Shown here: positions 11,684-63,575 of the stretch, one piece after another
Numbering within the stretch: the stretch's first letter is position 1
Layout: each line of letters opens with the position of its first letter
NCBI GenBank assembly: GCA_019747795.1
Contig: JAIEQK010000018.1
Coordinates: forward strand, 415-64,414
Source of the DNA: Gammaproteobacteria bacterium
GTDB lineage: Bacteria; Pseudomonadota; Gammaproteobacteria; Ga0077536
DNA: 64,000 nucleotides
Direction: 5' to 3'
The notes under the pieces: generated by a model
Databases searched by the model: none
The model's input: the letters and a program-made list of their open reading frames with translations, nothing else
What the model was told of the DNA's origin: nothing
Program-made: the position numbers and the translations under genes

Positions 11684-12300
11684 GCAACGCCGACGCCACC
11701 AGCGAGCGTCTGCCGCTGTTTCCGCTGCAGACCGTGTTCTACCCGGGCACGCTCCTGCCGCTGCGCATCTTCGAGACGCGTTACCTCGACATGGTGAGCG
11801 CCTCGCTGCGTGCCGGGCAGCCCTTCGGCATCGTGCCCATCCGGCGCGGCCGCGAGGTGGGCGCGGCGGCCGAGTTCCATGCCATGGGCACGCTCGCCAG
11901 CATCACGTCGTTCGACCGCGGCGACGACGGCCTGCTGCACCTGGTGGTGGAAGGCGGTGAGCGCTTTCGCGTCACCGCTCACCAGGTCATGCCGGACCGG
12001 CTCACGGTCGCCGACCTGGTCCGTCTGCCCCCCGCGGCCGATGGCAGCATTCCCGAAGATCTCAGTTACCTGCGAGCGCTTCTGCAAGAAGTCTACGAGC
12101 GGAATGCCGGGGCCGTGCCCTACGCCGCGCCGCGTTGGGACAGCGCGCTCTGGCTCGCCTACCGGCTCGGCGAACTGCTGCCGCTGCCGCTGCCGAACCG
12201 GCTCGCGGTGCTGGAAGCGGCGGACGGCGCCGCGGCGCTCAGGCTCATCGACGCCGCCCTGCGCGCCCAGGGCGCGAACCCGCCGCCGAGCATGCACTGA
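11680..12300 (+). CDS. LON N-terminal (substrate-binding) domain protein
   Basis: 206 aa with PLFPLQTVFYPGTLLPLRIFETRYLDMV, typical of stand-alone Lon N-terminal domain proteins. ATGA overlap with mpl. Confidence 0.75.
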   Translation: MSNADATSERLPLFPLQTVFYPGTLLPLRIFETRYLDMVSASLRAGQPFGIVPIRRGREVGAAAEFHAMGTLASITSFDRGDDGLLHLVVEGGERFRVTAHQVMPDRLTVADLVRLPPAADGSIPEDLSYLRALLQEVYERNAGAVPYAAPRWDSALWLAYRLGELLPLPLPNRLAVLEAADGAAALRLIDAALRAQGANPPPSMH

Positions 12301-12398
12301 ACGGCACACCCCACAACTGGCTGCGCCGCAAGTTGCTGTGCCCCCCAATCTGTGCGATTTTTACCGCCACGCTGATCACCCTGCGCGTAGCGCAAAAA

Positions 12399-14690
12399 AT
12401 GACAAGAACGAGAATCTCGCGTGCGCCGGCCGAGGCCGCGCCCGTGGTTGCGCTCGTCCTCACGTTGGTCCTCTTGCTCGTCGCCGGCGCGCCGGTGCGC
12501 GCCGACGTGCTGGAGAAGCGCAGCAGCGACTACAAGTGGCGCCTGTGCCCGCCGGCCATCCTGGTGCCGACCGCGCCCGGCTATGGCGACCAAGCCACCA
12601 GCGCGGACAACACTGAAGTGCGCGCCGACAGCGTGCGCGTGCTGAAAGAGGGCCTGAGCCAGTTCTCCGGCGACGTCGAGGTCATTCGCGGCGCGCAGGC
12701 GCTGGGCGGCGACGTCGTGACCTACGATCGGGAACGCGATCTGTTCACCGCCGAAGGGCGCGCTCACCTGTGGGACAAGTCGCTGGTGTGGTCGGGCGCC
12801 GAGGCGCTCTACGACCTGAAGAGCCACGTCTCGAAGCTCAAGGACGGCGACTACTGGGTCCATAACGGCCATGGTCGCGGCCACGCGCGCAGCATGCGCA
12901 ACGACATGGACGAGAACGTCACGGTCCTGAAGGGCGTGGACTACTCGACCTGCCCGCTGTCCGACGAGACCTGGCGCGTGTCGGCGAGCCGCATCCGGCT
13001 GGATCACACCAACGAGCGCGGTTCGGCGACCAATGCCGTGCTGCGCGTGTACGACGTGCCCATCTTCTACTTTCCCTACGTCAACTTTCCGATCAGTGAC
13101 CGGCGCAAGTCGGGCTTTCTCTCCCCGACCTTCGGCAACACCAACCAGTCCGGCCTGGACATCCAGCTGCCCTACTACTGGGACATCGCGCCGAATCACG
13201 ACGCCACCCTGACGCCGCGCGTGCTGACCGATCGCGGCATGATGATGAATGGCCAGTACCGCTACCTGGACACCACCTACGATGGTCAGTTGGACGTCGA
13301 ATACCTGCCGTCCGACGACCTGCGCGACGGTGAGTCGCGCTCGCTGGTGTCGTTCAAGCACCGCCAGCGCATGTTCGACAACCGCGGCCGCCTGCGCATG
13401 GTGGTCAACAACGTGTCCGACGATCGGTACTTCGAAGACTTCGGCGGCAGCATCGCGGCCACCAGTCAGCGCTTCCTCGACCGGCGCGCGGACTTCCAGT
13501 ACCGCGCGCCCGGCAACTACTACCGCATCCGCGGCGTGGTGCAGGCCTACCAGACCATCGATAACACCCTCGCGCCGGGTGTCGGTCCCTATCGGCGCCT
13601 GCCGCAGCTCATGTTCGATGGACGCCTGCCCGGCACCATCTTCGGCTTCCAGCCCGACATCAAGGCCGATACCACCTATTTCGATCGCGATGCCAGCGTC
13701 ACCGGCACACGTATCGACGTGGAACCGGGCATCACCTACATCTTCAATCGGCCCTACATGAGCATTCGGCCGAAGATCTCGGTGATGCAGAGCGAGTATT
13801 ACCTCGACGACCCGGCCGGCATCGCCGAGGAGCGCATCTCGCGTACAGTGCCCATCTTCAGCGTCGACAACCAGTTGTTCCTCGAGCGGCGACTCAACTT
13901 CGCCGACGGCGCCGGCATCCAGACCTTCGAGCCGCGCGTCTACTACCTCCTGGTGCCCAAGGTGCAGCAGGACGACATCCCGCGTTTCGACTCGGGCCTG
14001 TACACCACGTCCTTCCTGAACCTGTTTCGCGACAATCGCTTCTCGGGCGAGGACCGCGTGGCCGACGCCAACCAGGTCGCGACGGCCATCACGTCGCGCA
14101 TGATCGACGTGCAGACCGGGCGCGAGCTCTACCGGGTCAGCGTCGGCCAGATCTACTACTTCCGCGATCGCGAGGTGCTCCTGCCGAACGAGCGGGCGCA
14201 GACCGCCGGCGCCTCTTCGTTCATCTCCGAGGTCTCGACCAACATCATCGACGACTGGACCGCGCGCGGCGTGCTGCAATGGAATCCCGACGATTCCCGC
14301 ACCGACCTCGCCTCGGCCACGCTGCGCTACCGCCCCGACCTCGACACGGTGCTGAATTTCAGCTACCGCTACCGTCGCACCGTCAGCGACATCGAGCAGA
14401 CCGACGTCTCGCTACGCTGGCCGGTGAGCAACAACGTAGCGGTGGTCGGGCGCTGGAACTACTCGCTGCAGGAGAGTCGCGCGCTGGAGGCGCTGGGCGG
14501 CGTGGAGTACGAGAGCTGTTGCTGGGGCGTGCGCCTGGTCGGTCGGCGCTTCCTGCGCAATGCGGAGGGCGATTTCGACAATGGCGTGTTCCTGCAGTTC
14601 CAGTTCCGCGGCCTCGGCGGCATCGGCAAGAAGTCCGGCTCGGTGCTGAACCGCGGCATCCCGGGCTACGAAGACCCGTTCCAGGAGTGA
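12399..14690 (+). CDS. lptD: LPS-assembly outer-membrane protein LptD
   Basis: 763 aa from ATG 12399, with a signal peptide (..LVLLLVAGAPVRA). Large beta-barrel protein in the canonical lptD-surA-pdxA-rsmA arrangement. The track ORF starts 88 codons further upstream in Ala/Arg-rich read-through. Confidence 0.9.
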   Translation: MTRTRISRAPAEAAPVVALVLTLVLLLVAGAPVRADVLEKRSSDYKWRLCPPAILVPTAPGYGDQATSADNTEVRADSVRVLKEGLSQFSGDVEVIRGAQALGGDVVTYDRERDLFTAEGRAHLWDKSLVWSGAEALYDLKSHVSKLKDGDYWVHNGHGRGHARSMRNDMDENVTVLKGVDYSTCPLSDETWRVSASRIRLDHTNERGSATNAVLRVYDVPIFYFPYVNFPISDRRKSGFLSPTFGNTNQSGLDIQLPYYWDIAPNHDATLTPRVLTDRGMMMNGQYRYLDTTYDGQLDVEYLPSDDLRDGESRSLVSFKHRQRMFDNRGRLRMVVNNVSDDRYFEDFGGSIAATSQRFLDRRADFQYRAPGNYYRIRGVVQAYQTIDNTLAPGVGPYRRLPQLMFDGRLPGTIFGFQPDIKADTTYFDRDASVTGTRIDVEPGITYIFNRPYMSIRPKISVMQSEYYLDDPAGIAEERISRTVPIFSVDNQLFLERRLNFADGAGIQTFEPRVYYLLVPKVQQDDIPRFDSGLYTTSFLNLFRDNRFSGEDRVADANQVATAITSRMIDVQTGRELYRVSVGQIYYFRDREVLLPNERAQTAGASSFISEVSTNIIDDWTARGVLQWNPDDSRTDLASATLRYRPDLDTVLNFSYRYRRTVSDIEQTDVSLRWPVSNNVAVVGRWNYSLQESRALEALGGVEYESCCWGVRLVGRRFLRNAEGDFDNGVFLQFQFRGLGGIGKKSGSVLNRGIPGYEDPFQE

Positions 14691-14816
14691 TGCGGCCCAA
14701 GCGCGCGACCTTGGGTTACAATCCCCGCGCCGCGCGGCCGGCCACGCTCGCCCCCGCCGGTTCGCGCTCCGTGCTGGTCGCCCGCCGGAGATCCCGTTCC
14801 GCCACGCCTGATTCCC

Positions 14817-16112
14817 ATGCCTGATACTCGCCTGCTCACGCCCCTTCGCATCGCTCTCACCCTGCTCACGCTGCTGGGCTTCGGGCAGGCGCGCGCCGAT
14901 GCGCTCGATCACATCATTGCTGTGGTCGATGAGGACGTCGTGATGCAGAGCGAGGTCGACGAGCAGGTGGAGCGGGTGCGCTCGGCACTGCGCCAGCAGG
15001 GCACCGAGATGCCCCCCACCGCCGTGCTGGAACGCCAGGTGCTCGAGCGCCTTGTGCTGGAGAAGATCCAGATCCAGGTCGCCCAGCAGGCCGGCATGAA
15101 GGTGACCGAGAAGGATCTCGACAAGGCCGTGGCCGACATCGCCAAGCGCAACAAGCTCGAAATGGACAAGTTCAAGGAGATCATCGAATCCGAGGGCATC
15201 GCCTTCTCGCGCTTCCGCGAGCAGATCGGCGATCAGATCCTGCTCGCCAAGCTACGCCACGAGGAGGTCGAGAACCGCATCAAGGTCACGGACCAGGAGA
15301 TCGACAACTTCCTGCGCAACCAGTCCAACGCCTCCGAGGCCGAGCAGGAGTTCCGACTGTCGCACATCCTGATCTCGATTCCGAGCGGCGCGAGCGAAGA
15401 GGAGATCAAGGCCGCGCGGGCCAAGGCGGAGGACGCGCAGCGGCGGGTCGACGCGGGTGAGGATTTCGGCGACATCGCGCTGCGCATGTCCGACGGTCAG
15501 CAGGCGCTGGAGCGTGGCGACCTGGGCTGGCGCAAGGGCGGTGAGATCCCCTCGCTGTTCGCCGATGCGGTCAGCACCATGAAGGTGGGCGAGAACAGCG
15601 GCATCATCACCAGCCCCAGCGGCTATCACATCATCAAGCTGGTCGACAAACGCAGCGGCGAGCAAATCATGGTGCAGCAGCGCCGAGCGCGGCACATCCT
15701 GATCAAGCCCAATGCGCTGATCACACCCCAGCAGGCGGTCGATCGCCTGAACCAGCTGCGCATCCGCATCGAAGGCGGCGCGGATTTCGCGCAGCTCGCG
15801 CGCACCAATTCCGACGACCGCGGCTCGGCGCTGAAGGGCGGCGACCTGGGTTGGGTGAGCAAGGGCCAGATGGTGGCCGAGTTCGAAGAAGTGATGATGG
15901 CGAGCCCCATCGGCGCGATCAGCGCGCCGTTCCGCAGCGAGTTCGGCTGGCACATCCTGCAGGTCACCGACGAGCGCGAGTACGACGGCACCGAAGAGAT
16001 CAAGCGCGACCGCGCGCGCCGCGCGATTCGCGACCAGAAGGTGCAGGAACGACAGCAAACCTGGTTGCGCAGCCTGCGCGACGAGGCGTATGTCGAATTC
16101 CGCGACAAGTGA
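14817..16112 (+). CDS. surA: Periplasmic chaperone / peptidyl-prolyl isomerase SurA
   Basis: 431 aa with a signal peptide and two parvulin domains (SHILISIP.., ARHILIKPN..GGDLGWV). Confidence 0.93.
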   Translation: MPDTRLLTPLRIALTLLTLLGFGQARADALDHIIAVVDEDVVMQSEVDEQVERVRSALRQQGTEMPPTAVLERQVLERLVLEKIQIQVAQQAGMKVTEKDLDKAVADIAKRNKLEMDKFKEIIESEGIAFSRFREQIGDQILLAKLRHEEVENRIKVTDQEIDNFLRNQSNASEAEQEFRLSHILISIPSGASEEEIKAARAKAEDAQRRVDAGEDFGDIALRMSDGQQALERGDLGWRKGGEIPSLFADAVSTMKVGENSGIITSPSGYHIIKLVDKRSGEQIMVQQRRARHILIKPNALITPQQAVDRLNQLRIRIEGGADFAQLARTNSDDRGSALKGGDLGWVSKGQMVAEFEEVMMASPIGAISAPFRSEFGWHILQVTDEREYDGTEEIKRDRARRAIRDQKVQERQQTWLRSLRDEAYVEFRDK

Positions 16113-38781: not shown

Positions 38782-39678
38782 CTACTCTTCCGGGTGTTCG
38801 AGTTGCTCGATGCTGCGCGGCCAGTCGTCCTTCAACAGGCGCGACAACGCCCGGTCGGCCAGCAGTCGCCCGCCGGTCTGGCAGCGTGGGCAATAGTTGG
38901 TCTCGTTGTCGACATAGCGGATGCGCTGGACCTGCGTGCCACAGTCGGGACAGGGCTGGCCGTAGCGGCCGTGCACGGCCATCTCCGGACGAAACGCCGT
39001 GACCTTGCCTGGAAACGCGCCGGCCGCTTCGTCGCGCAACCGCGCCAACCATTCGTCCAACACGGCGCGGGTGGCGTCGAACAGCCGCTCGAACGCCTGT
39101 TCGTCGAGGCGCGCGGTCAGGGCCACCGGCGACAGGCGCGCCCGATGCAGGATTTCATCGGAGTAGGCATTGCCGATGCCGCTCAGCAGGCGCGCGTCGG
39201 TCAGCGCGCGCTTGAGCGTGTGATTGCGTCGCGAGAGGGCCGCCCGGAACTGCGCCAGGGTGGCATCGCCAACTTCCAGGCCACCCGGATCGTGTGCGGC
39301 GAGTGCATCACGCCCACGCACGACATGCAGCGAGGCGCGCTTGCGCGTGCCCGCCTCGGTCAGGAGCAGCGTGCCGCTCGTGAAGCCGAGCACGAGCGCG
39401 GTCTGCCGCGTGATCTTCGCGGGCCACGCCTCCCGCCACTGCAGGCGCCCGGCGATCATGAGATGCGTGACGAACCAGAGGTCGTTGGAGAAACCGATGG
39501 CGATACGCTTGCCCAAGCGCTCGATCGCCGTTACTTCGGCGCCCACGGCCTCGCTCATACTCGGCTCGACGCTGCGCAGCAGGAACGGTGAGGCGACCCT
39601 GGCGCGCTCGAGACGCACGCCGCGGAGGCGCGACGTCAGTGCCTCGATGTAGAGCGTGATGTCCGGCAGTTCGGGCAT
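38782..39678 (-). CDS. Fpg/Nei-family DNA glycosylase/AP lyase
   Basis: Start set at MPELPD (catalytic Pro2/Glu3), 8 codons inside the track ORF. H2TH region (LLSGIGNAYSDEILHRARL) and a C-terminal zinc finger CPDCG...CPRCQ. Confidence 0.85.
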   Translation of the reverse strand: MPELPDITLYIEALTSRLRGVRLERARVASPFLLRSVEPSMSEAVGAEVTAIERLGKRIAIGFSNDLWFVTHLMIAGRLQWREAWPAKITRQTALVLGFTSGTLLLTEAGTRKRASLHVVRGRDALAAHDPGGLEVGDATLAQFRAALSRRNHTLKRALTDARLLSGIGNAYSDEILHRARLSPVALTARLDEQAFERLFDATRAVLDEWLARLRDEAAGAFPGKVTAFRPEMAVHGRYGQPCPDCGTQVQRIRYVDNETNYCPRCQTGGRLLADRALSRLLKDDWPRSIEQLEHPEE

Positions 39679-39723
39679 GGGATCAAGCCCGGCGTGCAAC
39701 ACGCGACGGCGAAGACCCGCCTC

Positions 39724-40584
39724 TCACTCGGCCACGCCGAGCTTGATCGCCGCCTGCTGTGCGCGCCGCGCCTCCCCCGCGGCGAGGAGCGCCGCGCGGT
39801 TGTGTTCACCGACCTGCATATAGGCCTCCTTCCACGCACTCGAGGCGCTCCACACCTGCGGCGTGACGACGGTCGTGCGCGGTCCCCGCGCCTGTTCGAC
39901 GAGGTCGAACGCGCGGTCGGCGATGTCCCGCTGGCTGGCCTCGTCCCATGGACGGCCACAGGGATTGCCCAGGGGAAAGTCGGTGAACAGGAAACGCGGC
40001 ACGCCGCAGTGCTCGACGATGTCGCGCGCCGACCCCACCACCACGGTGGCGATCGCTGCGGCTTCGAGTGCGCGGGCGACCAGACTCACGGTCTGGTGAC
40101 AGACGGGTCAGAGCGGCACCAGCAGCGCCACATCCACCGCCTCGTCGCGGCACCCCGCGACGATCGCGGGCGCGTCGCGCAGGGCGGTATGGCGCTGCGA
40201 GTACTCGGTCGGGACGCAGTAGAAGTGGGGCGCGAGCCCACCGATGCGCCCGCTGGCAACCAAGCGACCAAGCTGCCGCACCGGAAGGTAGCTCTCGCGA
40301 TCGTCGGTGTGCGTGGCCTGCGTGTCCCACGCGAGGCCCTGCGTGTCGAGCCCCGCCGGGGGATGCGCGAGATCGCAGCGCGCCAGGCGCCGTCCGTGGC
40401 CCTGATGGCTCGCGTCGGGCATGGCCGTGGTGACCACGGTGACCCGACACTCGGCGAGTGGTTTGTCCAGCGCGTGGAAGGGCACGTCTTCATGATGCGC
40501 CCAGTGATACGGGCGCGCATAACCCTGCGCCGCGTAGAACTCGCGCGAGCGCGCCATGTAGAGAACCGGGTCCGTCGTGTCCAT
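39724..40584 (-). CDS. GrdB/PrdB-family (glycine/sarcosine/betaine/D-proline reductase protein B-like) protein with in-frame TGA (40108-40110); candidate selenoprotein
   Basis: ORF 39724..40089 and the 3' part of ORF 40108..41577 share a frame across one TGA. Read-through gives ...DEAVDVALLVPL-U-PVC-HQTVSLVARALEAAAIATVVV...FPLGNPCGRP, a UxxC motif at the position where I recall GrdB/PrdB carrying Sec. A 7-bp hairpin ACCAGAC-CGUGA-GUCUGGU (40079-40097) starts 10 nt after the UGA. Confidence 0.62.
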
Positions 40585-40805: not shown

Positions 40806-42062
40806 TCAGGCCGGCTTCCGCCCCTCCGCCGCCGCCATCGGGTCGTAACCGTCCTGCATGAACATGCGGTGCAGCTGACGACGGCGGACGCCCATGTTGC
40901 CGCCGTCGTAGAGCGGGAAGCACAGCGCGTCCTGCATGAGGCCGGCCAGCGGATGAAGATCGGTATAGCTGTCGACGCCCACCAGGCGCATCGCGTCGTA
41001 CACGACCTGCACGCATAGTTCGGACGTGTAGACCTTGGTCATGATGGCGAGCTCCTCGCCCACCCGGTCCGTGTCGTCGAGGTAGTGGCAGGCCTTCCAG
41101 CTCAGGTAGCGCGCCGCCTCGATGCGCATCTTCAGATCGGCCAGCATGTAGCCGGCGTTCTGGTGCTCGATGATCGGCACCGTGCCCGAGCGCTTGTCCT
41201 TGCGCGCGAACTCGAACGCGCAGTCGAACGCGGCGCGCATCACGCCGGTGCACGCCGCGCCGATCAAGGCGGCGGTCCAGGAGAACGTGCGCGAGCACAT
41301 GCCGATGCCGTCGCCGGGCTTGCCGATCAGGTTGTCGTAGGGCACGCGCACGTTCTCGAAGTGCATGACTGGCGAAGACGTCGCGCGGTGACCGGCGGTG
41401 TCGAGGAAGCCCGCGACCTTGACGCCGGGCGCGCGCCCGGGCACGACGATGACCGCGAGCGATTCCTGCGGCGGCCGATCCCCACCCACTCTGCAGACCA
41501 GGCTGACGAGGTCCGCGCCCTTGCCATCCCAGCCGCAAGCGTTGGTGGTGTAGTGCTTCCTGCCGTTGATGACCCATTCGTCGCCTTCACGCACTGCGAT
41601 GGTCTGCACGCCCGCGTTGGGATCGGGGGTATCGAAGCCGGAGCCGCCGGTCACCTCGGTGAAGCCGAAAGCCGCCAACGGTGTGCCCTGGTTGCGGACG
41701 AACTGCGGCAGGAAGCGACGCTTCTGCTCCTCCGTGCCGTAGTTGATGATGGGTTCCAGCCCGAGGCCGGTGCCGAGTAGCGCGGAGGGCACGTTCACAT
41801 CGACCGCGGCCAGCTCCTCCGTGGCGAGCGCAAGGTCGACGGTGGACATCGCGGTGCCGCCGTAGGCCTTGGGAACCAGGGCGGTGATGAAGCCGGCCTT
41901 GACCATCTCTTCGTAGATGGGCCGGGTCGCGTAGAAGCGCTCTTCCGGGCGCGCCAACGGCCCGATGATGCCGCGTACGCGGGCGAGATGCGTGGCCGCG
42001 AACTCGCGCGCGGACTGTTGGAGCGCCTTCTGCTCCGGGCTCAGGGTGAAATCGATGGCCAT
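40806..42062 (-). CDS. Acyl-CoA dehydrogenase
   Basis: 418 aa from ATG 42062, after GAGGA. MAIDFTLSPEQKALQQSAREFA..., collinear with ACAD N-terminal, middle and C-terminal domains. Confidence 0.88.
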   Translation of the reverse strand: MAIDFTLSPEQKALQQSAREFAATHLARVRGIIGPLARPEERFYATRPIYEEMVKAGFITALVPKAYGGTAMSTVDLALATEELAAVDVNVPSALLGTGLGLEPIINYGTEEQKRRFLPQFVRNQGTPLAAFGFTEVTGGSGFDTPDPNAGVQTIAVREGDEWVINGRKHYTTNACGWDGKGADLVSLVCRVGGDRPPQESLAVIVVPGRAPGVKVAGFLDTAGHRATSSPVMHFENVRVPYDNLIGKPGDGIGMCSRTFSWTAALIGAACTGVMRAAFDCAFEFARKDKRSGTVPIIEHQNAGYMLADLKMRIEAARYLSWKACHYLDDTDRVGEELAIMTKVYTSELCVQVVYDAMRLVGVDSYTDLHPLAGLMQDALCFPLYDGGNMGVRRRQLHRMFMQDGYDPMAAAEGRKPA

Positions 42063-42434
42063 GGCGTCCTCACGTGTTGATCGAGATTCTTGGGCGGCAG
42101 TGCTTGCCCGACGCAGGCCGGGCGCTGTGCGACAGGGGCCAGCCGTGTGCGTCTGGCTGCAGCGCGCAGGCGTCCATATTGAAAGCGATTTGGCGCCCTG
42201 CTGCATTGCCGGCGCGCACCGAGGGAGTGCCCACCACGAAGACCAGGACCATGCATCACCTGCCGGCACGCGAACAGTTCAGCGACTGGTGCGAGTTGAT
42301 CTGCGAGGCGTTCGCGACGCCGAGTCCCGATACGGCGAGCCGGAACGGCTTCGGCAGCGCACCGCGATTTGTCCCACCGTGCATGCGCGTGGGCCGCGCG
42401 ACGCCGCCGGGTGCGGCGCGGCGCGGTTTCCTGC

Positions 42435-43498: not shown

Positions 43499-43654
43499 CC
43501 ATGCGCCCAAGGTAAATACCTTGGAAGGTCGATCGGCCGCCGCGCATGGCGCGGGTATGCTGCGGCGGCGATAGATTAGGGCGCAGCCCGGGAGCACGCC
43601 GCGCCTGGGTCGTGAGTCACCGCCAACCGCTCCACGGGTGACAGGCAAACGCAC

Positions 43655-45439
43655 ATGACCAGGTCGAGTCTCGACATCGAAGCGCTCCGCGCGAAGTACG
43701 CCCTGGAGCGGGCACGGCGGCTGCGCCCGGCCGGCACCGATCAATACAGGTATGCCGAGGGCGCGCTCGCGCCGCTGGAGGATGATCCCTACGCCCCGGC
43801 GCCGGCCCCGCGCCCACCGCTGGACGAGATTCTCGACGTGCTCGTGATCGGCGCGGGCTTGGGCGGCCTGCAGCTGGGCGCGGCGCTGCGCCGCGAGCGC
43901 ATCGACGACTTCCGTATCGTCGACGTGGCCGGCGACTTCGGCGGCACCTGGTACTGGAACCGTTACCCCGGGCTGCGCTGCGACGTCGAGTCCTACATCT
44001 ACCTGCCGTTCCTGGAGGACACCGGCTACGTACCGACGGAACGTTACGTGCGCGGACGCGAGATCCTCGCCTACTGCCAGCTGCTCGGCCGGCATTTCAG
44101 CCTGTACGAGCGCGCGCTGTTCCAGACCGGCGTGACCGGCATGCAGTGGGACGACGCCGCGGCGCGGTGGACCGTCACCACCGATCGCGGCGACACCTTC
44201 CGCGCGCGCTTCGTGACCACGCAGAGCGGCATCTTCAACCGCCCCCAGCTGCCCGGCATCGAGGGCCTCGAGACCTTCCGTGGCAAGATGTTCCACAGCG
44301 CGCGCTGGGACTACGAGTACACCGGCGGCGATACCCATGGCGATCTCCGTGGACTCGCCGACAAGCGCGTCGGCCTGCTCGGCACGGGCACCACCGCGCT
44401 GCAGGTCGTGCCCGAAGTCGCGAAGAGCGCCCGGCAGCTCATCGTATTCCAGCGTACGCCGACCGCGGTCGGCGTACGCGACAACGGTCCCACCGACAGC
44501 GCCTGGTTCGAGGCTTTGCCCCCGGGCTGGCAGCGGCAGCGCGAAGTGAGCTTCAACCAGCTCGCCAACGGCGAACGCGCGGAGTGCGCGGTGGATGACG
44601 GCTGGGCGCGCTACTTCAACCGCCTGATCGACGCGGTCGAGGCGCTGCCCGCGGACCAGCGCACGCCCACGGCCATCGGCGAGGCGCAGGAAGCGGCGGA
44701 CTTCGCCTACAACGAACTCGTGCGCGCGCGGGTCGATGCCGAGGTCCACGATCCGCGTACCGCCGCGCTGCTCAAGGCCTATTACCGCACGCTCTGCAAG
44801 CGCCCCGGCTTCAGCGACGACTACCTGCCGGTGTTCAACCGACCGAACGTCTCGCTGGTGGACGTCAGCGAGGGAATCGAGCGCCTCACGGCGCAGGCCG
44901 TGGTGGTGGACGGCAGGCATTACGAAGTCGACTGCCTGATCTTCTGCACGGGCTTCGCCCTCGGCACGACCTGGACCCACCAGGCGGGCTACGACGTGAT
45001 CGGACGCGACGGGCTGAAGCTGTCCGACAAGTGGGACCGCGGCCTGGTCACCTACCACGGGTTGTTCAGTCACGGCTTTCCCAACCTGTTCTTCATGGGC
45101 CTCACCCAGACCGGCACGACCATCAACGTGCCGCACATGCTGCGCGAACAGATCGAGCACCTGACCTACATCGTGCGGCGCTGCCTGGACGAGAAGCGCT
45201 CGCGCGTGGAAGCGACGGCGGCGGCGGAAGAGGACTGGCAGCGGCAGATCGCCGCCGTCAACGAACTGCGCCGGCCCTTCCAGGAGGCCTGCACGCCCGG
45301 CTATTTCAACGCCGAAGGGCGCGCCGAGGATCGGCGCAGCGCGATCGGCTCGGGGATCTACTTCCCCTCCACCGACTTCTTCCGCATGTGGGCGGCGTGG
45401 CGAGCGCAGGGCGATTTCGCCGGACTCACCGTCACCTGA
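43655..45439 (+). CDS. Baeyer-Villiger (type I flavin-containing) monooxygenase
   Basis: 594 aa with FAD motif VIGAGLGG, GGTWYWNRYPGLRCD, BVMO fingerprint FRGKMFHSARW and a second Rossmann motif LGTGTTALQ. Confidence 0.88.
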   Translation: MTRSSLDIEALRAKYALERARRLRPAGTDQYRYAEGALAPLEDDPYAPAPAPRPPLDEILDVLVIGAGLGGLQLGAALRRERIDDFRIVDVAGDFGGTWYWNRYPGLRCDVESYIYLPFLEDTGYVPTERYVRGREILAYCQLLGRHFSLYERALFQTGVTGMQWDDAAARWTVTTDRGDTFRARFVTTQSGIFNRPQLPGIEGLETFRGKMFHSARWDYEYTGGDTHGDLRGLADKRVGLLGTGTTALQVVPEVAKSARQLIVFQRTPTAVGVRDNGPTDSAWFEALPPGWQRQREVSFNQLANGERAECAVDDGWARYFNRLIDAVEALPADQRTPTAIGEAQEAADFAYNELVRARVDAEVHDPRTAALLKAYYRTLCKRPGFSDDYLPVFNRPNVSLVDVSEGIERLTAQAVVVDGRHYEVDCLIFCTGFALGTTWTHQAGYDVIGRDGLKLSDKWDRGLVTYHGLFSHGFPNLFFMGLTQTGTTINVPHMLREQIEHLTYIVRRCLDEKRSRVEATAAAEEDWQRQIAAVNELRRPFQEACTPGYFNAEGRAEDRRSAIGSGIYFPSTDFFRMWAAWRAQGDFAGLTVT

Positions 45440-50102: not shown

Positions 50103-50999
50103 ACCCTGCCCGCCAAGGGCGGCCACCTTGCTCGCAGAGCCGGGACCGCAGGTCACGAAGCCGCGGCTCAACACCGGCGCGCCGTGCACGTCCCGCACGG
50201 CGAAGGAGAGTGCGTCCGGACCGCACTCCACCGCGTGCAGCGTGAGCGTGGACGGCAGACGCACCATGCCGCTCATGCGGCACCCGAGGCGGGTCACGCG
50301 CGCCGGCGTGCCTTGCAGGCGCGTCGCCACCACGGTCGAGAGGGCGAGCGCGAGCGTCGCCGTGCCGTGCAGGATGATGTCGGGCAGGCCGGCGGCGAGC
50401 GCGTGCGCGAGATCGCTGTGTATCGGGTTCCAGATGCGCGCGCACTCGGTGTAGACGTGGGCGAGGCCGGCCGGCACCTCGATGGCGTGGCCGGGGCCGT
50501 CGGGCGCCTGGTCCGCGGCGACGGGCCAGGCCGGCGCCGCTTCCAGCGCGCGCGGCGCGCCGTCGATGGCGACGCCACGGTAGAGCGTGCCCTGGTAGGT
50601 GCGGGTGACGAGTTCGCCCGCCGCGTCGCGCGTGTCGATGCGCTTCACCAGGTAGGCGCCCGGACGGCGCGCCTCCAGGGCGATGGCGGTCGCCGTCACC
50701 TGCAGGCGTTCGCCGGCGCGCAGTGGACGCAGCAGGTGGAGATCGTGTTCGGCATGCACCGCGGCGGCCTTCTCGGCCGCGGTCATGGCGCCGGCCTCGG
50801 TGCTCTCGCGCAGCGCGACGATGGCGTCCCACTCGAGGCACACGGGAAACAGCGGGTGATGGGCGAGCGGCTGCCTGGTGTCGAAGTAACAGGGCGCGCG
50901 TTCACCCAGCGCCGCCGCATAGGCCATCAGCCACCGCGCATCGGCGGTGTAGTGGAACGGGCCGCTGACGGCGCCGACGAGGCTCGCGGGCAAGGGCAT
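50082..50999 (-). CDS. Double hot-dog MaoC-like (R)-hydratase/dehydratase family protein
   Basis: 305 aa with two hot-dog-like halves. The second half has ...IHSD..A...G.P..ILHG.. Function is inferred from the fold only. Confidence 0.6.
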   Translation of the reverse strand: MPLPASLVGAVSGPFHYTADARWLMAYAAALGERAPCYFDTRQPLAHHPLFPVCLEWDAIVALRESTEAGAMTAAEKAAAVHAEHDLHLLRPLRAGERLQVTATAIALEARRPGAYLVKRIDTRDAAGELVTRTYQGTLYRGVAIDGAPRALEAAPAWPVAADQAPDGPGHAIEVPAGLAHVYTECARIWNPIHSDLAHALAAGLPDIILHGTATLALALSTVVATRLQGTPARVTRLGCRMSGMVRLPSTLTLHAVECGPDALSFAVRDVHGAPVLSRGFVTCGPGSASKVAALGGQGSAIAPT

Positions 51000-51113
51000 G
51001 GCACGAGTCTACACAGCGCCGCGCGCCCGGTCATCGCGCGCCGCGGCGGGGGCTGCGGCCTCGCGCGCGGCACGGCACAATGGCGCCGCCCTTCGCCACC
51101 CAGGAACGGAACC

Positions 51114-52391
51114 ATGGAAGTCATCCCGACGGCGCTCGTCGCGCCGCTGTTCAACCCCGCCACCTTCGCCGTGCGCGGCGCGGTCGACAGTCTGCTCACC
51201 GAGATCCGCCGCGACTATCCCCTGGCGCAGGCCGAGGTGCCCGGTTTCGATCCGCACTGGATAGTGAGTCGCCACGCGGACATCCAGGAGGTCTCCCGCC
51301 AGAACGAGCTGTTCCACAGCGCCGACCGCTCCGCGACCCTGATTCCGCAGATGGGCGAGGTGCTGGTGCAGCAGTTCACCGGCGGCGACTACAACCTGTT
51401 CCGCTCACTGGTGCAGCTGGACGGCGCCGAGCACAAGGCGCATCGCCGCGTGCTGTTCCAGGCGCTCGCGTCGCACTCGGTCGCGCAGCTCACCGAGAGC
51501 ATGCGCGCCACGGCCCGCGCCCAGCTCGCGACGCTCCGCGAGCGCGGCGGCGAGCTCGACTGGTCGAAGGAGATAGCGACGCCCTATCCCCTGCAGGTGG
51601 TGCTCGATGCGATCGGCGTGCCGCGCGTCGATCATCCGCGCATGCTGCGGCTCACCCAGTGGCTGTTCAGCTGGGCCGATCCGGACCTGCGTCGCCCCGG
51701 CAGCGACCCGAGCGATCCCGAGCAGCAGGCGCGCACCTGGAAAATCGTCCTTGAGGAGTTCGACGAGTATTTCTCCACGCTCATCGAGGAACGGCGGCGC
51801 ACGCCGCAGGACGATCTCGCCACCTTGATCGCCAACGCCGAGATCGACGGGGAGCCCATGGCCCACAGCCGCGCGATCTCCTACTTCGCGATCCTATCCA
51901 CCGCCGGCCACGACTCCACGGCCCACACCACCGCGACCGCGATGTGGGTGCTGGCGGAGAACCCGGACCTGTTCGCCGCGCTGAAGGCCGATGCGGCGCT
52001 GATCCCCAACTTCGTCGAAGAGGCCATCCGCTGGACGACCCCGGTCAAGCACTTCGTGCGCCACGCCACGGCGGACTGCACGCTGGCCGGCAAGGTCATC
52101 GCCAAGGGCGATCGCCTGTACCTCTCCTACCCGTCCGGCAACCGTGACGAGGCGGAGTTCGACGAGCCCTTCCGCTTCCGGCTCGATCGCGCGCGCAATC
52201 GCCACGTCGGCTTCGGCTACGGCGGTCACGTGTGCCTGGGCCAGCATCTCGCACGTCTCGAGATGCGTACCCTATGGGAGGAACTGCTGCCGGTCCTCGA
52301 AGCCGTGGAGATGACCGGCGAGGGGGAACTCATCGCCTCCGAGTTCGTGTCGGGGCCGAAGAAAGTGCCGGTGCGCTGCCGGCTCGCCTGA
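51114..52391 (+). CDS. Cytochrome P450
   Basis: 425 aa from ATG 51114. I-helix AGHDSTAHT, ExxR, and heme loop FGYGGHVCLGQHLA. Confidence 0.9.
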   Translation: MEVIPTALVAPLFNPATFAVRGAVDSLLTEIRRDYPLAQAEVPGFDPHWIVSRHADIQEVSRQNELFHSADRSATLIPQMGEVLVQQFTGGDYNLFRSLVQLDGAEHKAHRRVLFQALASHSVAQLTESMRATARAQLATLRERGGELDWSKEIATPYPLQVVLDAIGVPRVDHPRMLRLTQWLFSWADPDLRRPGSDPSDPEQQARTWKIVLEEFDEYFSTLIEERRRTPQDDLATLIANAEIDGEPMAHSRAISYFAILSTAGHDSTAHTTATAMWVLAENPDLFAALKADAALIPNFVEEAIRWTTPVKHFVRHATADCTLAGKVIAKGDRLYLSYPSGNRDEAEFDEPFRFRLDRARNRHVGFGYGGHVCLGQHLARLEMRTLWEELLPVLEAVEMTGEGELIASEFVSGPKKVPVRCRLA

Positions 52392-52521
52392 GACTGGCGC
52401 GCGCCGGCTTGCCTGCGCGCCTCCGCCCTCCCACAATCCCGAGCGACGACGCTGCCGATCCGCGGCGTCATGGCCGCCGCGGCGGCTCACCATGGAGCCA
52501 CGACTGGGGAGGTCGCCAACC

Positions 52522-53823
52522 ATGTCCACGCCAGTACACGCGCAGGATGCCGCGCTCGCATCCGCAGACTTGCTCACCGACTTCGATCACCTCGAACCGC
52601 ACATCGGCGCGGACGGCACGCCCCTCGCCTACTACGAGGCCCTGCGCGACGCGGCCGCCGAGAGCGGCCACTACGTCCACTGGTGCGAACGCTACGACGG
52701 CTTCTGGGCGGTGTTCGGCTACGAGGAATACACCGAGATCACACGCCACCCCGAGCGCTTCTCCAACACCGAGCCGACCTTTCCACGCTACGCGCTCGGC
52801 GAACCACTGATGATCGCCGGGCAGGACGATCCCGAGCATCGCTTCGCGCGCGCGCTGGTCAATTCCTCCTTCGGACCGCACGGCGTGCAGGTCTACGAGC
52901 CGATGCTGCGTGAGAACGTGAACCTGCTCATCGACGGCATCATTGCCGACGGCGCGGTGGACATCGCGCAGCTCATCGCGCGGCCCATTCCGGCCATCCT
53001 GACCGCGCTCCTGATGGGTCTGCCGGCGGAGCTTGGCCCGAAGTTCATGGCCTGGTGCCGGGCGATCTCCGAAGGGCACATCCTCGATCCGGAAGGTTCG
53101 AAGCCGCTGATCGAGGAGATGTACGCCTACTTCGACGACACCATCGCGCGGCGCAAGCAGGACGGCGGCGCGGACATCCTGTCGACGGTGATCAACGCCG
53201 AAGTCGACGGCCGCCGCTTCACCCATCGGGAACTGCGCGGCTTCTGCACGCTGCTCATGCTGGGCGGCATCGACAACACCAAGAACCTGGTCGGCACGCT
53301 GCTGTGGCGACTCGCCTGGGACATCGACCTGCGCACCCGGCTGTTGCGCGATCGCGCGCTGATCCCGCGCGCCATCCAGGAGTGCCTGCGCTACTACTCG
53401 CCGGCCTTCACCGCGCGCCTGCTGTTGGAGGACACGAGCGTCGGCGGCGTGACGATGAAGGCAGGACAGATGCTCCTGCTGTGCAACCCCATCGCGAATC
53501 GCGATCGCCGCGCGTTCGATCATCCGGACAGCTTCATCCTCGATCGGCCACCCAATCGCCACGTCGGCCTCGGGCTCGGCGTGCATCGCTGCCTCGGCGC
53601 CCATCTCGTGGCGCTGGAAGCGCGTGTGATCGTCGAGGAACTGCTCGATCGCCTGCCGCATTTCCGTCTCGACCCGGCTCGCCCGAGCCGGTGGTGGCCG
53701 GGCTTCGTGTCGGGCATGGGCAATGTGCCGGTGCTGTTCGAACCGCAGGCGCCCAGACGCGACGTGCGCGGCAACGCGGGCGTCGAGACGTGGCTCGCCA
53801 GCGCGCGGGCGTTGCCCGCATGA
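52522..53823 (+). CDS. Cytochrome P450 (second, divergent copy)
   Basis: 433 aa from ATG 52522, after GGAGG. I-helix LMLGGIDNT, and heme loop LGLGVHRCLGAHLV. Confidence 0.9.
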   Translation: MSTPVHAQDAALASADLLTDFDHLEPHIGADGTPLAYYEALRDAAAESGHYVHWCERYDGFWAVFGYEEYTEITRHPERFSNTEPTFPRYALGEPLMIAGQDDPEHRFARALVNSSFGPHGVQVYEPMLRENVNLLIDGIIADGAVDIAQLIARPIPAILTALLMGLPAELGPKFMAWCRAISEGHILDPEGSKPLIEEMYAYFDDTIARRKQDGGADILSTVINAEVDGRRFTHRELRGFCTLLMLGGIDNTKNLVGTLLWRLAWDIDLRTRLLRDRALIPRAIQECLRYYSPAFTARLLLEDTSVGGVTMKAGQMLLLCNPIANRDRRAFDHPDSFILDRPPNRHVGLGLGVHRCLGAHLVALEARVIVEELLDRLPHFRLDPARPSRWWPGFVSGMGNVPVLFEPQAPRRDVRGNAGVETWLASARALPA

Positions 53824-59003: not shown

Positions 59004-59111
59004 CCCGCGGCGCGGCGCGCGCTGCCCGGGCGGGCAGCGCACCATTTGCCTCGCGCGCGGCGGGAATGGAACAATCCCGGTCCCATTCCGCTGCGCGCAG
59101 AGGTGCTCTCC

Positions 59112-60113
59112 ATGAAGGTCGACGGCATGATCGGCTGGAATCTCGACACGGTCGGCGACGAGGCCGCCAAGCTCGAGAACCTGGGCTATACCGGCGCGAT
59201 GTCGGTCGAGACCGCCCACGATCCCTTCTTCCCGCTGGTGGTCGCCGCGCAGCGCACCACGCGGGTCGACCTCATGACCTCCATCGCCGTGGCTTTCGCC
59301 CGCACGCCCATGGTGCTGGCCAACATCGGCCACGACCTGAACGCGCTCGCGCGTGGCCGCTTCGTGCTCGGTCTGGGTTCGCAGATCAAGCCGCACATCA
59401 CCAAGCGCTTCAGCATGCCCTGGTCGGAACCCGCCGCGCGCATGCGCGAGTTCGTGCTGGCGATGCGCGCCATCTGGGCCACCTGGCACGAGGGCAAGCC
59501 GCTGACCTTCGTCGGCAAGTATTACGCCCACACCCTGATGACGCCGATGTTCACCCCGACCAACAACGAGTACGGCGCGCCGCGCGTGTTCCTCGCGGCG
59601 GTCGGTCCGCGCATGACAGAGGTCGCCGGTGAAGTGTGCGACGGCGTCATCATCCACGCCTTCACCACCGAGAACTACCTGCGCGAGACCACCCTGCCGG
59701 CCCTCGAGCGCGGGCTGGCCAAGGCCGGTCGCGCGCGGGCGGACTTCGAGGTGAGCTACCCGGTGTTCGTGGTCACCGGCCGTGACGAGCACGAGTTCGC
59801 GGCCTCGAAGAAGAACATCTGCAAGCAGATCGCCTTCTACGGCTCGACCCCGGCCTACCGACCGGTGCTGGAGAGCATCGGCGCGGGCGAACTGCAGGAT
59901 GAACTCAATCGCATGTCCAAGCAGGGTCGCTGGGACGACATGGGCCTGCTTATCGACGACAAGCTGCTGGCCGCCTTCGCCGTGATCGGCGAGGTGGACA
60001 GCCTGCCCGCGCAGATCAAGGCGCGCTGCGCCGGCCTGGTCGACCGCGTGTCGGCCGCCTACGCGCATCTGGGCGAAGAAGACCAGCGCAAACTGGTGAC
60101 GGGCTTGCTGTGA
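59112..60113 (+). CDS. Luciferase-like (LLM class) flavin/F420-dependent oxidoreductase
   Basis: 333 aa from ATG 59112. TIM-barrel LLM pattern (...RFVLGLGSQ...; ...YGSTPAYRPVLE...). Confidence 0.78.
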   Translation: MKVDGMIGWNLDTVGDEAAKLENLGYTGAMSVETAHDPFFPLVVAAQRTTRVDLMTSIAVAFARTPMVLANIGHDLNALARGRFVLGLGSQIKPHITKRFSMPWSEPAARMREFVLAMRAIWATWHEGKPLTFVGKYYAHTLMTPMFTPTNNEYGAPRVFLAAVGPRMTEVAGEVCDGVIIHAFTTENYLRETTLPALERGLAKAGRARADFEVSYPVFVVTGRDEHEFAASKKNICKQIAFYGSTPAYRPVLESIGAGELQDELNRMSKQGRWDDMGLLIDDKLLAAFAVIGEVDSLPAQIKARCAGLVDRVSAAYAHLGEEDQRKLVTGLL

Positions 60114-60120
60114 ACATCGA

Positions 60121-60204
60121 CTGTAGGTCGGACTTCAGTCCGACATTCCGTTCCAGAGCATCAATCGAAATCGGGGAACGAATGTCGGGCTGAAGCCCGA
60201 CCTA
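60121..60204. repeat. REPIN-like inverted REP doublet
   Basis: Arm CTGTAGGTCGGACTTCAGTCCGACATTCC (60121-60149), a 30-nt spacer, then an inverted, slightly diverged arm GAATGTCGGGCTGAAGCCCGACCTA (60180-60204). Each arm starts with GTAG and is itself a hairpin (GTCGGAC-TTCA-GTCCGAC). Confidence 0.8.
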
Positions 60205-63487: not shown

Positions 63488-63575
63488 CTGTAGGTCGGAC
63501 TTCAGTCCGACATTCCTCTTTCGTCACCGCGTTCGGGACTCTGGAAGGAATGTCGGACTGAAGTCCGACCTACAG
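63488..63575. repeat. REPIN-like inverted REP doublet (perfect 29-nt arms)
   Basis: CTGTAGGTCGGACTTCAGTCCGACATTCC (63488-63516), a 30-nt spacer, then the exact reverse complement (63547-63575). Same family as 60121-60204, but in the opposite orientation judged from the spacer end CTCTGGAA. Confidence 0.85.

Follow-up and report, generated by a model that had tools for sequence, protein, structure and literature searches.

The selenoprotein B subunits of Stickland-type reductases, PrdB of D-proline reductase (Clostridium sticklandii, Clostridioides difficile) and the related proteins GrdB, GrdF and GrdH, carry selenocysteine (Sec, U) at equivalent motifs, which in GrdB is UxxCxxC (review, PMC13188914). 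Proteins listed as 'Proline reductase PrdB', with a UxxC motif, are also part of the supplements of two environmental surveys. The family was the third most abundant among selenoproteins of the Sargasso Sea, with 42 genes (Zhang, Fomenko & Gladyshev 2005, PMC1088965), and comprised 235 members with Sec and 110 with cysteine (Cys) in the marine samples of the Global Ocean Sampling (GOS) (Zhang & Gladyshev 2008, PMC2398784); 'Proline reductase' selenoproteins have been counted in Anaeromyxobacter and Geobacter as well. Both surveys treated the family as PrdB, without separation from the clostridial enzyme (PMC1088965, PMC2398784). Here we describe a member encoded on the minus strand of a 64,000-nucleotide stretch of DNA (the window) from contig JAIEQK010000018.1 of a gammaproteobacterial assembly (GCA_019747795.1). 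This member is very likely a stand-alone selenoprotein of 286 residues from the GrdB/PrdB superfamily, which is recoded through an mRNA hairpin and belongs to the 'PrdB-like' UxxC family abundant in environmental bacteria. Comparison of homologous sequences gives us high confidence that the UGA at position 159 is decoded as Sec through the hairpin downstream of it.

An earlier note, made from the letters of this DNA, had read a single frame from the ATG at 40584 through the TGA at 40108-40110 to FPLGNPCGRP. Translation confirms this frame of 286 codons before the terminal stop. The internal TGA is the only one in the frame and has the context LLVPL-U-PVCHQT. The junction reads ..VDVALLVPL*PVCHQTVSLVARALEAAAIATVVV.., or in a wider view ..AVDVALLVPL-*-PVCHQTVSLVARALE.., and the frame runs on into ..FPLGNPCGRP... 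The part annotated in GenBank is a 'hypothetical protein' of 121 residues, and an exact-sequence look-up of the 158-residue N-terminal fragment found no record. The 121-residue call is an artefact that the Sec codon caused in the annotation. In related assemblies, the gene is split into open reading frames (ORFs) of 158/203 and 121 residues.

The in-frame TGA is conserved far beyond the window. A search with the read-through product as protein query yielded 1771 homologues. Full-length homologues of about 290 residues have Cys at the TGA column, within an invariant P-L-C-P-V-C-H-Q-T; they bear names such as 'glycine reductase' in Bradyrhizobium and 'D-proline reductase PrdB' in JGI records. 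A DNA pattern for the TGA-bearing motif (YTNTGACCNGTNTGYCAYCARAC), with one genome taken per species, detected the same in-frame TGA in at least 120 species (L002-L121). Among the matches listed are Gammaproteobacteria, Alphaproteobacteria, Betaproteobacteria, Deltaproteobacteria/Myxococcota, Acidimicrobiia, Dehalococcoidia/Anaerolineae, Binatia, Tectomicrobia and Spirochaetales. All matches listed are true homologues in which the frame is kept across the TGA, and a conserved ORF of 100-135 residues follows in every listed locus long enough to show one. The TGA occupies the Sec column in 122 of 122 Sec-form sequences, made up of the window, L001 and the 120 species loci. Close orthologues come from independent assemblies, and all four of them (L001, L247, L248 and L249) keep the TGA. 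The earlier note had proposed aligning homologues for their Sec or Cys usage and looking for continuation past the TGA; the alignment shows the exchange of the two residues at this column, and the orthologues do not end there.

Past the TGA, the window and L249 differ by 23 synonymous and 6 nonsynonymous substitutions. Therefore, the downstream part of the gene is under purifying selection as protein. Of 60 synonymous differences between these two sequences over the whole gene, none falls into codons 152-183; the chance of such a gap would be roughly 0.001 for boundaries fixed in advance, and these boundaries were picked post hoc. In a set of representatives clustered at 50% identity from 15 billion proteins, many members of the family stop exactly at profile position 157 or begin at positions 160-165, as is typical when gene callers cut Sec forms in two.

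It is very improbable that the TGA is a real stop, whether of a pseudogene, through a sequencing error, or between two small genes of 158 residues and of 121 residues from the internal GTG, with the hairpin as a by-product of the codons for HQTVSLV. Such a reading agrees with the GenBank call of the 121-residue ORF only, and with TGA being the usual stop in this genome: it terminates 29 of the 36 Pfam-supported genes in the window, the PrdB-like gene among them. Because TGA is otherwise a normal stop in the window, the genetic code is not reassigned. However, a real stop does not fit a TGA that at least 120 species and the four close orthologues from independent samples share at one alignment column, in a frame that is always kept, at a position that is Cys in full-length homologues and is followed by far more synonymous than nonsynonymous differences. 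The hairpin, discussed below, also speaks against it.

In Escherichia coli, the Sec insertion sequence (SECIS) of the fdhF/fdnG type is a hairpin inside the coding sequence, with an 11-nucleotide spacer, a short upper stem, and G-U in the apical loop. The PrdB-like mRNA contains a similar element, UGA-CCCGUCUGUC-ACCAGAC-CGUGA-GUCUGGU, in which a perfect stem of seven base pairs and a loop of five nucleotides follow the UGA after a spacer of 10 nucleotides. The hairpin is located where the earlier note had placed it, and the helix conserved across species starts 11 nucleotides past the UGA. Unlike the E. coli elements, it has the pentaloop CGUGA and no obvious bulged U, and the whole element overlies the near-invariant peptide HQTVSLV. 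Because of this superposition, conservation of the SECIS across phyla is unusually strong. A scan of the window at Rfam gathering thresholds gave no match.

Judged from this sequence alone, the hairpin is mildly unusual and constitutes weak evidence: in the window, which has a GC content of 68%, 18 of 1407 TGA triplets (1.3%) are followed at 8-13 nucleotides by a perfect stem of at least seven base pairs. The comparative data are decisive. Since the peptide H-Q-T-V-S-L-V that encodes the stem is conserved in Cys forms as well, a matched control was built from metagenomes with the same pattern carrying TGY in place of TGA, and 78 of the 120 matches listed (L122-L241) are true homologues. The 5' arm of the stem is partly fixed by the search pattern, alike in the Sec and Cys sets.

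The two sets differ at the serine position of the stem. Sec forms use an NGU codon throughout (AGU 100, GGU 11 and UGU 8 of 119), so that all 100 Sec forms with Ser employ AGU, and the only replacements of Ser are residues for which an NGU codon exists (Gly GGU, Cys UGU). By contrast, the Cys forms have AGC in 68 of 78 sequences. Accordingly, the pair A18-U26 is formed in 119/119 Sec forms and 4/78 Cys forms, and the five inner pairs are intact in 117/119 and 4/78, respectively. When only sequences with the identical HQTVSLV peptide are compared, six pairs are intact in 73 of 73 TGA forms and in 3 of 41 Cys forms. The rare AGU in all Ser-bearing Sec forms and this difference at identical peptide are not accounted for by a real stop with a by-product hairpin. 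Codon choice in the loop also differs, ACC being used by 111/119 Sec and 54/78 Cys forms, and GUG by 108/119 and 22/78; GU is present within the loop of 118 of 119 Sec-form sequences.

The stem covaries, as the earlier note had suggested checking. The Gln codon CAA pairs with Leu UUG, and this pair is A-U in 15 sequences, G-C in 97, G-U in 5, and mismatched in 2. The His codon CAU accompanies an A-initial codon at position +10 (U-A, 15 sequences). Thus, two pairs have double-sided changes, CG to UA and GC to AU, in 15 sequences each. In the alignment of 117 Sec-form sequences (A4), standard pairs make up 95.9% of the pair cells, and sliding the 3' partner by one to three columns reduces the pairing to 15-33%. 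None of 500 shuffles reached the observed covariation score. The SECIS helix is the sole helix predicted by unguided RNAalifold. These comparisons identify the hairpin as a putative SECIS that is specific to Sec forms and goes beyond a by-product of the peptide.

Some observations weigh against this assignment, and they would equally be expected around a real stop. The local folding energy of the single sequence is ordinary (z = -0.17), and the Cys forms retain six of the seven stem pairs at 85-100%. Because the peptide forces most of the stem, what separates the two sets is mainly a single pair (A-U versus A-C), the codons of the loop, and those pairs that covary. Furthermore, Sec forms and Cys forms were drawn from different collections, and the two listings are lower bounds.

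At the base of the stem, the third base of the Val/Ile codon at +10 (+32 after the TGA, position 40078 in the window) is G in 0/119 Sec forms, which use GUC, GUU or GUA. GUG is the commonest codon at this place in the Cys forms (46/78). A G at the base of the SECIS stem seems to be avoided.

The window carries a second candidate selenoprotein gene, on the minus strand at 28044-26899, with 68 bits to the AhpC/TSA family (Prx-like). Its TGA (27627-27625) stands at the position of the active-site Cys, in W-S-S-W-U-G-C, and is kept in the orthologue from a contig of a related strain (L243). The hairpin CCUGUC-CGUGU-GGCAGG starts 14 nucleotides past this TGA and has the CGUG loop of the PrdB-like gene. 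The gene matches the published 'Prx-like (UGC-containing)' selenoprotein family. Its arrangement provides indirect support for the organism being capable of Sec decoding.

It is very improbable that the UGA is read through without Sec, for example by near-cognate Trp or Cys, with the hairpin serving only to stimulate readthrough in a generic way. In other systems, a hairpin past a stop codon is able to have such an effect. In addition, the 64-kb window holds no tRNA in a tRNA scan, hence no selC, and no gene of the Sec machinery, which tells against Sec decoding. Nevertheless, readthrough of this kind is hardly to be expected at the redox-active Cys position of a CxxC motif, a classical site of Sec/Cys exchange. 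The 11-nucleotide spacer, the stem of 6-7 base pairs, and the G-U in the loop of nearly all Sec forms fit bacterial SECIS requirements; the family was independently identified as selenoproteins by SECIS-based searches; and the Prx-like gene in the same contig has the same arrangement. The earlier note had called the UGA a genuine Sec codon, and the Sec/Cys alignment, the species range of the TGA, the covarying Sec-specific hairpin, and the purifying selection downstream uphold it.

A further TGA (14688-14690, plus strand), between LptD and SurA in the gammaproteobacterial lptD-surA-pdxA-ksgA block of the window, was considered as a Sec site and rejected, because Pfam recognizes two ordinary adjacent genes. 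LptD (11961-14690) and the open frame of SurA (14691-16112, ATG 14817) lie in the same frame, with a single TGA between them and a Cys directly after it.

Sec decoding of the PrdB-like gene may be older than its Cys variants. The mean identity is 50% among Sec forms and 71% among the sampled Cys forms, so that the Sec forms are more diverse. On a neighbour-joining tree, the most parsimonious reconstruction has a Sec root and at least five changes to Cys; the sampling differs between the two sets. AGC, which the Cys forms nearly always use for the Ser after HQTV in preference to UCN, is one transition away from the AGU of the Sec forms. These hints are only suggestive of Cys forms descending from Sec ancestors, in which case AGC would be a 'relic' of AGU.

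The earlier note had assigned the protein to the GrdB/PrdB family. At the level of the superfamily this assignment stands. The NCBIfam model of PrdB, TIGR04483, matches with E = 9.6e-17 and 61.2 bits, far below its equivalog cutoff of 300, and the match connects residues 94-232 of the query with positions 82-221 of the 238-residue model. The models of GrdB, GrdH and GrdF and the subfamily model score 16-27 bits against cutoffs of 65-800 (TIGR01918, 19.2 against 65.45; TIGR01917, 17.8 against 602), with the cutoffs of GrdB, GrdF and GrdH being 602-800. The Pfam family GRDB (PF07355), which the earlier note had suggested as a check, does not match the window protein even at E ≤ 1 and weakly matches 54 of 62 homologues. 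On account of these scores, the protein belongs to a distinct clade of the superfamily that is neither PrdB nor GrdB, and comparison of the sequences supports kinship to these proteins at superfamily level only.

What the protein shares with PrdB is a core of some 140 homologous residues surrounding the Sec, the UxxC motif, and a small size, here of about 290 residues. The N-terminal third is unrelated to PrdB, because the match covers residues 94-232 only, and the N-terminal 90 or so residues are family-specific. To GrdB, GrdF and GrdH, the protein is distantly homologous in their C-terminal third (model positions ~276-420 of ~431), and its Sec occupies the equivalent motif. By contrast, it is about 150 residues shorter, in agreement with the earlier description as shorter than clostridial GrdB, and its motif U-P-V-C-H-Q-T is a UxxC without the third Cys of the GrdB type.

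No prd or grd partner is encoded within 10 kb in the window or in any of 200 homologous loci; the earlier note had stated this of grdA, grdC and grdE nearby. The flanking genes named in that note are an acyl-CoA dehydrogenase (40806-42269) and an Fpg/Nei DNA glycosylase (38782-39702); further neighbours in the window are an amidohydrolase, GroEL, and a zinc-dependent alcohol dehydrogenase. Neighbour families were defined by all-versus-all clustering of the ORFs of the 200 loci, in which the top clusters are artefacts of alternative frames. The commonest real neighbours are a CaiB-like CoA-transferase, which ranks first, an alpha/beta hydrolase, a short-chain dehydrogenase/reductase (SDR), and an acyl-CoA dehydrogenase (ACAD). 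A conserved operon was rejected, since real neighbour families occur in 15 loci at most. The comparison supports the orphan status of the PrdB-like gene; the lack of a conserved neighbour family also withholds a clue to its function.

It is very unlikely that the protein is a bona fide Stickland-type selenoprotein B subunit, PrdB or GrdB/F/H, whose partners PrdA or GrdE/GrdA/GrdC are encoded elsewhere in the genome. TIGR04483 is the best-scoring model, the UxxC motif is present, homologues are named after D-proline or glycine reductase, and the literature files the family under PrdB. However, the scores far below the cutoffs, the match limited to the core, the motif without the third Cys, and the lack of the pyruvoyl subunit PrdA, of PrdC and of grdA/C/E in the window and the 200 loci set it apart from these subunits. 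The hosts belong largely to lineages of aerobic heterotrophs and are not Stickland fermenters. The earlier note had called the organism apparently aerobic and P450-rich. Elsewhere in the window there are genes for two cytochromes P450, for an FMO/BVMO-like flavoprotein, and for a luciferase-like monooxygenase (50103-53823, 43616-45439 and 59004-60113). These predicted P450s and other oxygenases confirm an oxygen-dependent lifestyle for the Sec-using organism.

A protein with the UxxC motif of the PrdB-like family would be made as follows. The UGA at position 159 would escape being read as a stop because the hairpin of 6-7 base pairs with a G-U-containing pentaloop, 10-11 nucleotides downstream, presumably recruits SelB-GTP-Sec-tRNA(Sec) to the ribosome, the players being taken from the E. 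coli paradigm. Sec would be inserted, and translation would run on for another 127 codons. An AlphaFold (AF2) model of a Cys form with 57% identity (pLDDT 87.7, pTM 0.88) has strands alternating with helices, and its CxxC opens helix 157-172 directly after strand 149-153. In the model, this transition from strand to helix is the usual setting of a redox-active dithiol. Sec159 and Cys162 would accordingly lie where a beta-strand of a Rossmann-like alpha/beta domain gives way to a helix, at the N-terminus of the latter. Sec159 may be the nucleophile and Cys162 the resolving residue, and a dithiol system of the cell would reduce the resulting selenenyl-sulfide again. There are good grounds for assigning a redox role to the U-x-x-C pair; by analogy with PrdB and GrdB, reductive cleavage of a bond is the probable reaction, here proceeding without a pyruvoyl-bearing PrdA or GrdE partner.

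Structural comparison contributes little to this proposal and partly weighs against it. A sequence-profile search of the PDB gave no match at E ≤ 1, and Foldseek against the PDB returned only a generic likeness to Rossmann-like and periplasmic-binding proteins (best E = 0.03, TM ≤ 0.35). The functional part of the explanation is weakly supported.

A lead to the substrate is provided by fusions with adenylate-forming enzymes. Three cluster representatives consist of an AMP-binding plus AMP-binding_C enzyme fused to a C-terminal PrdB-like domain with the motif VPNCPVCHQ, and two of these are 40% identical and colinear across the junction. A search with one fusion returned at least 10 clusters of proteins of about 800 residues from NCBI, JGI, ENA and Logan; since they share the architecture, it is real. 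In L245, a stand-alone orthologue of the adenylating enzyme lies within an operon of TRAP-transporter, CoA-transferase and enoyl-CoA-hydratase genes, and a GRDB-like gene for a protein of 297 residues is found 2.6 kb from this AMP-binding operon, beside another CaiB-type transferase. Another locus with the AMP-binding operon has no GRDB-like gene. The fusions (P0163, P0160, P0162, P0308-P0317) form a sister clade with the motif CPVCHQ and do not include the window protein, which lessens their bearing on it. Together, the fusions and L245 suggest, and no more, that the substrate is handled as an acyl-adenylate or CoA thioester, possibly of a carboxylic acid. In a separate protein, P0175, a Ser/Thr-kinase is fused to the C-terminal half of a PrdB-like protein.

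On the basis of the recurrent adenylate-forming fusions, the occasional clustering with CaiB-type CoA-transferase and acyl-CoA dehydrogenase genes, and the lack of a pyruvoyl partner, it may be speculated that the family is a self-contained selenol/thiol reductase of aerobic heterotrophs, with carboxylic acids in activated form (acyl-adenylates or CoA thioesters) as its substrates, and not a subunit of a proline or glycine reductase. We consider this specific assignment doubtful.

Table 1 Features of the PrdB-like selenoprotein gene in the window
Feature	Position	Strand	Basis
Complete coding sequence of the stand-alone PrdB-like selenoprotein, ATG 40584-40582 to terminal TGA 39726-39724; 287 codons, 286 residues including Sec159 plus TGA stop	39724..40584	-	Reading frame; start and length match ~290-residue homologues; colinear orthologues L247, L248, L249
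UGA, putative Sec codon, residue 159, first position of the U-P-V-C redox motif	40108..40110	-	Aligned with the invariant Cys of PLCPVCHQT
Cys162 codon UGU, presumed resolving Cys of UxxC	40099..40101	-	Invariant in alignments; role by analogy with PrdB/GrdB chemistry
Putative SECIS hairpin; 7-bp stem 40097-40091 with 40085-40079, loop CGUGA 40090-40086	40079..40097	-	Within the codons for H-Q-T-V-S-L-V
Codons 152-183, zero synonymous substitutions between close orthologues; covers UGA and hairpin	40035..40131	-	Window versus L249
GenBank-annotated part, 121-residue 'hypothetical protein' MBX9604983.1 (K2Y51_02090), start at internal GTG	39727..40089	-	Exact-sequence look-up

The background scan for hairpins also detected a repeated intergenic palindrome, GTCGGACTTCAGTCCGAC (variant GTCGGGCTTCAGCCCGAC), at ~60127-60144, 60184-60201 and 63494-63511, which looks REP-like (repetitive extragenic palindromic) or terminator-like.

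The reading in the earlier note is correct and not novel, because the family has been published as selenoproteins since 2005. The supplement sequences listed as 'Proline reductase PrdB' (..LLVPLuPVCHQTVGLVARHLESNGIPTVIAGSARD..FPLGNP.., PMC1088965, PMC2398784) have the same Sec position and the motif LLVPL-U-PVCHQT...FPLGNP, and one of them is identical to the homologue L083 over the stretch compared. The window gene further agrees with the family in the alignment of its TGA with Cys and in the hairpin downstream. The Sec codon, motif and SECIS of the PrdB-like family are established knowledge, and the gene described here is a further member. Nothing essential distinguishes it from the published environmental members; this copy comes from a high-GC gammaproteobacterial metagenome-assembled genome of soil/freshwater type and was not annotated as a selenoprotein. 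A literature search for functional studies of 'PrdB-like' or 'GrdB-like' proteins returned nothing relevant.

The analysis corrects the annotation of a 286-residue selenoprotein that has been recorded only as a 121-residue hypothetical fragment, and it indicates Sec decoding by a gammaproteobacterium rich in oxygenases. The label 'PrdB' is not justified by any of the tests of PrdB or GrdB membership applied here, and the 'PrdB' of environmental surveys is a distinct orphan clade that is among the commonest bacterial selenoproteins. Its SECIS within a near-invariant heptapeptide illustrates cleanly, in a natural gene, how constraints on protein and RNA can overlap, and TGA followed by HQTV(S/G/C)L with an NGU codon offers a simple marker for finding and annotating members of the family. 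If the proposed self-contained reductase activity is true, a reaction not yet described would be carried out by a selenoprotein that ranks among the most abundant in the environment.

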